5,596 nt of DNA from Giardia intestinalis. Lineage: Eukaryota. Under the pieces are notes generated by a model that made no database searches, was not told the origin of the DNA, and saw only the letters and a program-made list of their open reading frames with translations. The position numbers and the translations under genes were made by a program. Positions 291-3,366 of the stretch are shown piece by piece (position 1 is the first letter of the stretch; each line of letters begins with the position of its first letter). The stretch lies in assembly GCA_000002435.2 (NCBI GenBank), contig AACB03000026.1; one strand, given 5' to 3'.

Positions 291-3200
291 CAGCACCGTC
301 CGGACCAAGACTATTGGTGCATGTCTGGCATTTTCCTTTGTTATCAGTTAGTGCACATACCTGCTTGCCAGGCTGTCTCGTTGTTTCATAGCACCCGCCC
401 TCCTGGATGAAGTATCCGGCGGCGCAGACCGTGCAAGCACCGTTAGCGGCAGTGGTGCAGAACCGAGTCCTGGCCGCATTGCTTGTGCAGACGCCATTGA
501 GCGGCACGTTGCTCCCCTTGCACTTCGAGCAGTACTTGGTACCTCCAATTGTTAGGCCGCACGTCTCGCACTCCGGGCCCTCCACGCATTGCTCCACGCA
601 CTGGCCGCCCTCATTAAGCTTGGTCTCGTCGGCGTACCTCAGCATCTTCCCGGCGGGGCAGGCCGTGCACTTGGAAGCGCCGGCCCCGCTGCACTCCGCA
701 CAGGAGGGGTCGCAGGGCGCGCACGTTTGCCCGGATAGATACGTTCCGGCCGGACAAGACCCCAAGCAAGCGTTCTTCTCTGGAGTGAGGAAGTAGTTAC
801 TTTGGCACTTTGTGCACTTCTGCTTGTCCTCCGAGCACACCTCGCAGTTGGGGAGATTGCAGCCAGCAGGCCGCGACCTCGTCGCACGTGTTCCGGCCCT
901 CGTTCTTCTGGGTCCCGTCGGGCACTCGGCGTAGCAGCCGCCCTTGTAGAGGTAGTGCGCGTTCGTACAGGCCGTGCACGTCCCTGCCTTATCGTTTGTA
1001 CCGACCGTGCACATGCCCGCGTCCGTCTTCGCCTTGCACTCCCCATTCACCGGGACCTTGTCCCCTGTGCACTTGGAGCAGAAGGTCTGGCCCCCGATTT
1101 CCACGTTGCAGCTGTCGGCGGCGCAGTTTGTCGCGCCGGGGTTTGCGGCGGCGCACGGCGTTGGGCCAGCAGGCGCGACCTCGTCGCACGTGTTCCGGCC
1201 CTCGTTCTTCTGGGTCCCGTCGGGGCACTCGGCGTAGCAGCCGCCCTTGTAGAGGTAGTGCGCGTTCGTACAGGCCGTGCACGTCCCTGCCTTATCGTTT
1301 GTACCGACCGTGCACATGCCCGCGTCCGTCTTCGCCTTGCACTCCCCATTCACCGGGACCTTGTCCCCTGTGCACTTGGAGCAGAAGGTCTGGCCCCCGA
1401 TTTCCACGTTGCAGCTGTCGGCGGCGCAGTTTGTCGCGCCGGGGTTTGCGGCGGCGCACGGCGTTGGGCCAGCAGGCGCGACCTCGTCGCACGTGTTCCG
1501 GCCCTCGTTCTTCTGGGTCCCGTCGGGGCACTCGGCGTAGCAGCCGCCCTTGTAGAGGTAGTGCGCGTTCGTACAGGCCGTGCACGTCCCTGCCTTATCG
1601 TTTGTACCGACCGTGCACATGCCCGCGTCCGTCTTCGCCTTGCACTCCCCATTCACCGGGACCTTGTCCCCTGTGCACTTGGAGCAGAAGGTCTGGCCCC
1701 CGATTTCCACGTTGCAGCTGTCGGCGGCGCAGTTTGTCGCGCCGGGGTTTGCGGCGGCGCACGGCGTTGGGCCAGCAGGCGCGACCTCGTCGCACGTGTT
1801 CCGGCCCTCGTTCTTCTGGGTCCCGTCGGGGCACTCGGCGTAGCAGCCGCCCTTGTAGAGGTAGTGCGCGTTCGTACAGGCCGTGCACGTCCCTGCCTTA
1901 TCGTTTGTACCGACCGTGCACATGCCCGCGTCCGTCTTCGCCTTGCACTCCCCATTCACCGGGACCTTGTCCCCTGTGCACTTGGAGCAGAAGGTCTGGC
2001 CCCCGATTTCCACGTTGCAGCTGTCGGCGGCGCAGTTTGTCGCGCCGGGGTTTGCGGCGGCGCACGGCGTTGGGCCAGCAGGCGCGACCTCGTCGCACGT
2101 GTTCCGGCCCTCGTTCTTCTGGGTCCCGTCGGGGCACTCGGCGTAGCAGCCGCCCTTGTAGAGGTAGTGCGCGTTCGTACAGGCCGTGCACGTCCCTGCC
2201 TTATCGTTTGTACCGACCGTGCACATGCCCGCGTCCGTCTTCGCCTTGCACTCCCCATTCACCGGGACCTTGTCCCCTGTGCACTTGGAGCAGAAGGTCT
2301 GGCCCCCGATTTCCACGTTGCAGCTGTCGGCGGCGCAGTTTGTCGCGCCGGGGTTTGCGGCGGCGCACGGCGTTGGGCCAGCAGGCGCGACCTCGTCGCA
2401 CGTGTTCCGGCCCTCGTTCTTCTGGGTCCCGTCGGGGCACTCGGCGTAGCAGCCGCCCTTGTAGAGGTAGTGCGCGTTCGTACAGGCCGTGCACGTCCCT
2501 GCCTTATCGTTTGTACCGACCGTGCACATGCCCGCGTCCGTCTTCGCCTTGCACTCCCCATTCACCGGGACCTTGTCCCCTGTGCACTTGGAGCAGAAGG
2601 TCTGGCCCCCGATTTCCACGTTGCAGCTGTCGGCGGCGCAGTTTGTCGCGCCGGGGTTTGCGGCGGCGCACGGCGTTGGGCCAGCAGGCGCGACCTCGTC
2701 GCACGTGTTCCGGCCCTCGTTCTTCTGGGTCCCGTCGGGGCACTCGGCGTAGCAGCCGCCCTTGTAGAGGTAGTGCGCGTTCGTACAGGCCGTGCACGTC
2801 CCTGCCTTATCGTTTGTACCGACCGTGCACATGCCCGCGTCCGTCTTCGCCTTGCACTCCCCATTCACCGGGACCTTGTCCCCTGTGCACTTGGAGCAGA
2901 AGGTCTGGCCCCCGATTTCCACGTTGCAGCTGTCGGCGGCGCAGTTTGTCGCGCCGGGGTTTGCGGCGGCGCACGGCGTTGGGCCAGCAGGCGCGACCTC
3001 GTCGCACGTGTTCCGGCCCTCGTTCTTCTGGGTCCCGTCGGGGCACTCGGCGTAGCAGCCGCCCTTGTAGAGGTAGTGCGCGTTCGTACAGGCCGTGCAC
3101 GTCCCTGCCTTATCGTTTGTACCGACCGTGCACATGCCCGCGTCCGTCTTCGCCTTGCACTCCCCATTCACCGGGACCTTGTCCCCTGTGCACTTGGAGC

Positions 3201-3366
3201 AGAAGGTCTGGCCCCCGATTTCCACGTTGCAGCTGTCGGCGGCGCAGTTTGTCGCGCCGGGGTTTGCGGCGGCGCACGGCGTTGGGTTTGTCTTTGCTTT
3301 ACTTGCTGTTTGCGACGCCAAGGCCATTTGCAGGGCCAAGCTTACAAAAATAAGCTTATCGAACAT
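190..3366 (-). CDS. Variant-specific surface protein (VSP)-like, or high-cysteine membrane protein. Layout: signal peptide, then 8 x 101-aa tandem Cys-rich modules, then a unique CXXC-rich region. The called stop at 190-192 is probably not the true C-terminus; see the 1..290 feature.
   Basis: Single 1058-aa ORF. The N-terminus [17 protein letters not shown] is a hydrophobic signal peptide. Cysteine content is about 12%, with many CXXC motifs (CSKC, CTAC, CEVC, CTKC, CAPC, CAEC, CETC, CTVC, CQTC) and GGCY motifs typical of Giardia VSPs. A canonical VSP membrane-anchor sequence ([13 protein letters not shown]) is encoded just downstream at positions 1..60 in another frame. Confidence 0.85.
378..584 (-). 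repeat. Diverged single copy of the same Cys module within the unique C-terminal region of the VSP-like protein
   Basis: The unique-region peptide [62 protein letters not shown] aligns motif-for-motif with the repeat-unit peptide [63 protein letters not shown]. Shared motifs are IGG, CSKC, VP.NG, CT.C and GGCY.E. Confidence 0.55.
860..3286. repeat. Perfect tandem array of about 8.0 copies of a 303-bp unit. It is coding and sits inside the VSP-like gene.
   Basis: Six-frame ORFs recur with an exact 303-nt period: plus-strand starts at 974, 1277, 1580 … 3095, and minus-strand starts at 989, 1292 … 2807. Each group gives identical translations in four fully overlapping frames. This identity across four overlapping frames shows that copies 2-8 (about 1165..3285) are nucleotide-identical. 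Array boundaries come from divergence at 859-862 (…gattgca|gccagcagg) and 3286/3287 (gttggg|tttgtc). Confidence 0.95.
3316..3366 (-). other. Predicted signal peptide coding segment of the VSP-like gene ([17 protein letters not shown])
   Basis: ATG at 3364-3366 (cat on the plus strand). The 17-aa hydrophobic stretch ends in an ALA-like cleavage context, directly before the Ser/Thr/Lys linker and the first Cys module. Confidence 0.55.

Follow-up and report, generated by a model that had tools for sequence, protein, structure and literature searches.

Among vsp genes of the Giardia WB isolate, 30 bear repeats, with units of 105-516 bp that are present in 2 to >20 copies (Adam 2010, PMC2996952). 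A parallel in design to the gene described here is vspA6/CRP170 (vsp67), in which about 22-23 copies of a 195-bp repeat follow a 99-bp leader and in which the repeat is immunodominant, while vspC5 (vsp90) holds about 25 x 105 bp and vsp122 holds 3 x 516 bp (all Adam 2010, PMC2996952). The same catalogue lists vsp16 as gene 112867, a clade II member labelled 'HT_TR303' with 303 nt per repeat, and places it on chromosome 4 as a complete gene of 741 aa and 88 Cys with the initiator (Inr) CAATGTT (Adam et al. 2010, PMC2996952, Additional file 1). Here we analyse vsp16 as it appears in a 5,596-nt stretch of Giardia intestinalis DNA (contig AACB03000026.1), the whole of which we call the window; positions are 1-based and refer to the + strand as given. 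Both vsp16 and its 303-bp repeat are already catalogued and the phenomenon is already known, and the sole new datum is the count of eight units. Our preferred reading, in which we have considerable confidence, is that the window holds vsp16 with an eight-copy array of a 303-bp unit in the membrane-distal ectodomain, that the units are exchanged in a way that keeps the reading frame, that the single-base insertions and deletions (indels) of the window are errors, and that the gene specifies an intact product of 1145 aa.

Results

The window contains an eight-unit array of which seven units are identical

The only array that Tandem Repeats Finder detects in the window lies at 862..3286, with a period of 303, 8.0 copies, 99% matches, a score of 4834 and no net indels. 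The array is read from the minus strand, where it comes directly after a putative signal peptide and short linker, and each of its 101-aa units has 12 Cys, two CXXC motifs and one GGCY. A base-by-base comparison gave 0 differences among the 7 x 303 nt at 1165..3285 (minus strand), which are units 1-7 of the gene and show 100% nucleotide identity, and the translation of all seven is exactly the unit present in the WB reference proteins. The eighth unit, at 862..1164 (minus strand) and nearest the 3' end of the gene, is the same as the others except for two 1-nt indels: an extra C at about 871-872 and, in the G-run at about 920-922 of the + strand, one G fewer, which is a change from C4 to C3 on the coding strand. 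Together these indels shift the frame over ~16 codons, with the loss of one Cys and an altered stretch of 21 residues. From ~920 to 3286 the 303-periodicity is perfect. The array is real, as 2.1 kb of perfect periodic identity is beyond chance.

Tandem Repeats Finder and the count of units thus agree with the first-pass annotation of this DNA on the coordinates of the array, the 303-bp/101-aa unit and its 12 Cys. Its description of eight nucleotide-identical modules stands for the seven at 1165..3285 and fails for the one at 862..1164, and the odd 'copy 1' that it set apart comes first on the + strand only, being the last unit of a gene whose coding strand is the minus strand. Two long open reading frames (ORFs) on the + strand, 802..3396 (864 aa) and 810..3353 (847 aa), run antisense through the entire array. 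Neither has a Pfam match and we rejected both as genes, since the 303-nt unit is free of stops and such ORFs arise as a by-product of its periodicity.

The gene is a VSP and corresponds to vsp16

On the coding (minus) strand the ORF as read occupies 190..3366, begins with the ATG at 3366 and encodes 1058 aa. The minus-strand product matches the Pfam VSP family PF03302 with an E-value of 4.1e-100; its score of 335.9 bits compares with a cut-off of 31.4, and the reference allele P0052 reaches 458 bits. Of 5.8 billion proteins, the one most closely related to it is XP_001709724.1, 'VSP [Giardia lamblia ATCC 50803]', of 741 aa. A second WB version, XP_001709724.2/KAE8303799.1 (842 aa), falls in the same 90% cluster as XP_001709724.1. 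With this family match and a VSP as best homologue, the gene first described as 'VSP-like' is a true Giardia VSP. Because the protein match, the catalogue entry, the initiator motif and the neighbouring gene XP_001709725.1 all coincide, we take the window gene to be the vsp16 / GL50803_112867 locus of WB-type (assemblage A1) G. intestinalis. The first-pass annotation was therefore right to see a surface antigen with a repeat, but missed both the breakage of its ORF by indels and its earlier cataloguing as HT_TR303.

The start codon (3366..3364) opens a stretch of 27 codons (3286..3366, minus strand) that comprises a putative signal peptide of 17 residues and a linker; the N-terminus of the product is hydrophobic over 17 residues, and a helix covers residues 3-19 in the AlphaFold2 (AF2) model. 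An initiator-like motif, (T/C)AATGTT, is found at the start codon of many, but not all, vsp genes. In the window it takes the form CAATGTT, spanning 3368..3362 (cccaATGttc), as is listed for vsp16. The array that follows consists of in-frame tandem repeats in the ectodomain and, at 303 bp x 8, falls in the class of vsp genes with units of 105-516 bp in at least two copies. Behind it lies the non-repeated C-terminal part of the VSP ectodomain, at 1..861 (minus strand), which is affected by two 1-nt deletions, at about 280-282 and about 46, and contains a second GGCY. VSPs are Cys-rich (about 12%) and carry many CXXC motifs besides GGCY, a profile that the product shares, and in an alignment of 51 VSPs the residues G102-G103-C104-Y105 are invariant. 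The start of the transmembrane (TM) segment (14 residues, 44..3) is present, but the two deletions in this part put it in a different frame from the ORF as read, and the final ~72 nt of the gene, including those for CRGKA, lie past the left edge of the window; in both WB reference proteins the TM segment and CRGKA are intact.

Literature searches with the gene identifier of vsp16 returned nothing relevant, including no expression data for the gene that would bear on the mutually exclusive and switching expression at the surface that marks VSPs, and neither the Pollo 2020 nor the Baptista 2024 supplements list 112867. Exact look-ups of seven ORFs of the window returned none of them from the protein collection. 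A scan of Joint Genome Institute (JGI) metagenome contigs with P0001 produced 115 pattern matches, of which 0 were confirmed.

Three versions of the gene have four, five and eight units

We counted exact copies of the 101-aa unit by script in the three available versions of the gene. The 2007 WB protein XP_001709724.1 (741 aa) has four, the 2020 WB protein XP_001709724.2/KAE8303799.1 (842 aa) has five, and the window gene has seven plus one frameshifted unit, giving 1145 aa after frame correction (27 + 8x101 + 310 aa). The 337 non-repeat residues are identical between the two WB reference proteins, and outside the frameshifted stretches the window matches the references with 100% amino-acid identity. 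This bears out the earlier suggestion that copy number is labile or uncertain, as the three versions of one gene hold 4, 5 and 8 units and are otherwise identical in their non-repeat sequence. A second point of the first-pass annotation, that assemblies collapse or inflate arrays of this kind, also agrees with the published warning that repeats may be condensed in assembly and that repeat counts for WB vsp genes are approximate for this reason (Adam 2010, PMC2996952).

Biological variation and assembly collapse or inflation are both candidate sources of the 4/5/8 difference. If the organism has one fixed number of units, the difference is purely technical, with collapse in the Sanger and PacBio assemblies or inflation in the present one. 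We consider this plausible, though it falls a little short of probable. The visible indel noise in the window assembly speaks for it, as does the fact that some long-read assemblies of A1 were built from DNA amplified by multiple displacement amplification (MDA) (PMC12216428). However, PacBio and Oxford Nanopore (ONT) reads easily span a 2.4-kb array, so that five units in one long-read version and eight in another are hard to explain by collapse alone, and allelic variation in copy number is documented in two other repeat-bearing vsp genes, vspA6 and vspC5 (Adam 2010, PMC2996952).

A more tentative possibility, which we regard as rather doubtful, is that none of the 4-, 5- and 8-unit versions is an artefact and that they either coexist as alleles or arose between laboratory lineages of the near-clonal A1 genotype, in which case the array would be mitotically unstable over short time-scales. 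If true, this would constitute a second, recombination-based layer of variation in antigen size and valency on top of epigenetic VSP switching, and mixed copy numbers among the reads could have left the indel noise at the array's edge as their footprint.

The differences from the reference proteins are six single-base indels

Compared with the reference proteins the window shows six differences, all of them 1-nt indels and several in homopolymers, and 0 amino-acid substitutions in the ~2.1 kb that can be checked. Two are those of the last repeat unit (about 871-872 and about 920-922). Another two lie in the unique part of the VSP, namely the loss of 1 nt at about 280-282 and a change from A2 to A1 at about 46, and the remaining two are insertions of 1 nt in the neighbouring retrotransposon remnant, at about 4181-4183 and about 4565-4567. 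Similar homopolymer frameshifts from PacBio reads were described in Giardia by Xu 2020 (PMC7000408). We infer that the six indels are residual long-read or polishing errors, because real divergence would be expected to yield more substitutions than indels, and the truncation of the ORF would then be an artefact.

The same pattern bears on whether the gene could be a real pseudogene of the source isolate, with genuine frameshifts and an array that expanded neutrally in a dead gene. As read, the ORF does lose the frame of the TM segment and CRGKA as well as one Cys of the last unit, and pseudo-VSPs are numerous in WB, with 208 reported by Xu 2020 (PMC7000408). Decay would however favour substitutions, whereas we find six indels and none of these in ~2.1 kb; two of the indels fall in the neighbouring element, several of the sites are changes in homopolymer length, and both WB reference proteins are intact. 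We therefore judge a dead gene to be very unlikely. The practical consequence is that automated annotation of the window assembly would call an intact surface antigen truncated or a pseudogene.

The distribution of the indels also touches on the perfection of the array. The internal units contain 0 indels in 2121 nt and the checkable flanks contain 6 in 2129 nt (Poisson P about 0.0025), the latter a rate of about 2.8 per kb. This contrast suggests that the two were polished differently. On this basis it might be argued that the seven units are not truly identical and that pooling or multi-mapping of reads during polishing erased real differences between them. All six indels, however, fall in sequence that exists in many copies (the 3' part conserved among VSP genes, the dispersed reverse-transcriptase (psi-RT) element and the edge of the array), and we have downgraded the uniform-rate Poisson argument for such homogenisation since the error rate is probably non-uniform and the test is correspondingly weak. 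Moreover, in the independent assemblies of 2007 (Sanger) and 2020 (PacBio+Illumina), too, the units show 100% amino-acid identity. Erasure of real differences by polishing thus appears unlikely to us.

In-register exchange would account for both unit identity and differing counts

If the array is subject to in-register unequal exchange, slippage or conversion between units, such events would alter the number of identical modules and nothing else. Since the unit is exactly 101 codons long and the array is flanked by the putative signal peptide on one side and by the unique ectodomain on the other, exchange of this kind would keep both the reading frame and the Cys pattern. The same events would also keep the units homogenised, and because in-register exchange both homogenises and changes number, it would explain how perfect identity of units can go together with counts of 4, 5 and 8. 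Its predicted outcome is a change in epitope valency and in ectodomain size, with a longer or shorter extracellular stalk. With the six indels read as errors, the actual product would be an intact VSP of 1145 aa with the TM segment and CRGKA tail.

Several considerations weigh against this account of an intact and exchanging array. The source isolate may be other than WB and the indels could be real, and the perfection of the units in the window assembly may partly reflect a consensus of pooled reads. The recombination mechanism, for its part, is inferred from the anatomy of the gene, and the identity of the flanks to the reference versions holds at the protein level only.

The unit resembles a single-copy module of the same protein

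Aligning the 101-aa unit with the rest of the protein identified, in the unique C-terminal part, a single-copy module (IGG..CSKC..VP.NG.C...GGCY, with GGCYETT in its sequence) at 35% identity (E 1e-12). By this alignment the array amounts to an ordinary VSP module that has been amplified, and the unit is a self-contained paralogue of the C-terminal single-copy one.

The second half of the unit (C.AC....) is similar to furin-like Cys-rich repeats and aligns to R-spondin Fu2 with an E-value of about 0.002; among solved structures, sequence matches are confined to R-spondin Fu domains. The AF2 model was made on the 4-unit reference protein, and the best Foldseek matches to it in the PDB are RSPO Fu1-Fu2. 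Its mean predicted local distance difference test (pLDDT) score is 74.9; it reaches 88-93 in the first unit's core and >90 in the C-terminal part but is <50 in the linkers that separate the units, and the low confidence in the later units probably reflects poor alignment there. The likeness of the unit to R-spondin Fu1-Fu2 and to the cysteine-rich (CR) domains of IGF1R and ErbB is one of fold and Cys pattern only, and with target-normalised TM-scores of 0.4-0.7 we claim neither family membership nor receptor binding.

Every unit also matches the Pfam family PF09132 'BmKX', a scorpion toxin family with a 30-column model, at ~65 bits against a cut-off of 24. The match covers residues 38-67 of the unit (for example window ~3085-3174, minus strand). 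A sequence search of the PDB with the unit returned R-spondins only and no toxin chain at E<=10, and we rejected a toxin domain in the unit. The BmKX model seems to recognise the Giardia VSP motif VPVNGxC...C...C..C, which would make the family name misleading for VSPs.

A retrotransposon remnant lies head-to-head with the gene

On the + strand, head-to-head with the VSP, lies a degenerate remnant of a non-long-terminal-repeat (non-LTR) retrotransposon ('reverse transcriptase/endonuclease') at 3665..4892, possibly extending to 5596. At 4009..4892 (+) we found XP_001709725.1 ('reverse transcriptase/endonuclease, putative'), which adjoins the VSP in the reference, and relative to it the remnant is split over three frames by one extra nucleotide each at about 4181-4183 and about 4565-4567. 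Paralogous ORF fragments, more than 30 in all, from WB, DH, GS and ENA assemblies align to the remnant, in all three frames. The accession of one such paralogue, XP_001704665.1, is adjacent to that of another 741-aa VSP, XP_001704664.1. Psi-RT remnants between divergent VSP pairs were noted by Xu 2020 (PMC7000408), and this recurrent VSP/psi-RT adjacency may bear on the duplication of vsp genes.

The rest of the window, 4900-5596 (+), is A- and C-rich, with an AT skew of up to +0.47 and a GC skew down to -0.23, and has open frames of 105-149 aa (5073..5390, 5125..5574). These frames have no match to Pfam or to any retroelement protein compared. The region may be a degenerate 3' part of the retroelement.

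Discussion

The window gene shares with WB vsp16 the putative signal peptide, the 101-aa unit, the 310-aa C-terminal part, the CAATGTT initiator and the retrotransposon remnant as neighbour. It differs in having eight units (1145 aa corrected) where the references have four (741 aa) and five (842 aa), and in its six 1-nt indels. In practice the locus serves as a warning to those who annotate and assemble genomes, as the unit count disagrees among three assemblies.

Beyond the WB versions, the next-best homologue, P0002 (a 'Giardia duodenalis' VSP of 657 aa), has only the C-terminal ~190 aa in common with the window gene, at 65% identity, and its N-terminal part is different and without repeats. 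Among the homologues from the protein search, no protein outside the WB cluster has the tandem 101-aa unit. The amplification seems to be confined to the A1 lineage, or else to have been lost in fragmented assemblies.

Within the known repeat-bearing VSPs the architecture has clear counterparts. For Giardia vspA6 and vspC5 it has been an established point since the 1990s that repeat number changes epitope valency in a family used for antigenic variation, and the vsp16 locus adds a further example and not a new principle. Like vspC5 and vsp122, the window gene carries in-frame tandem repeats within the VSP ectodomain, but the array of vspC5 extends to the conserved 3' end, whereas here a unique region of 310 aa comes after the array. 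In this respect it follows vspA6/CRP170, where a leader is succeeded by a long array of near-identical Cys-rich repeats, a unique region and the conserved 3' end; the two differ in the sequence and length of the unit (195 bp in vspA6 and 303 bp here) and in the number of copies, which is higher in vspA6.

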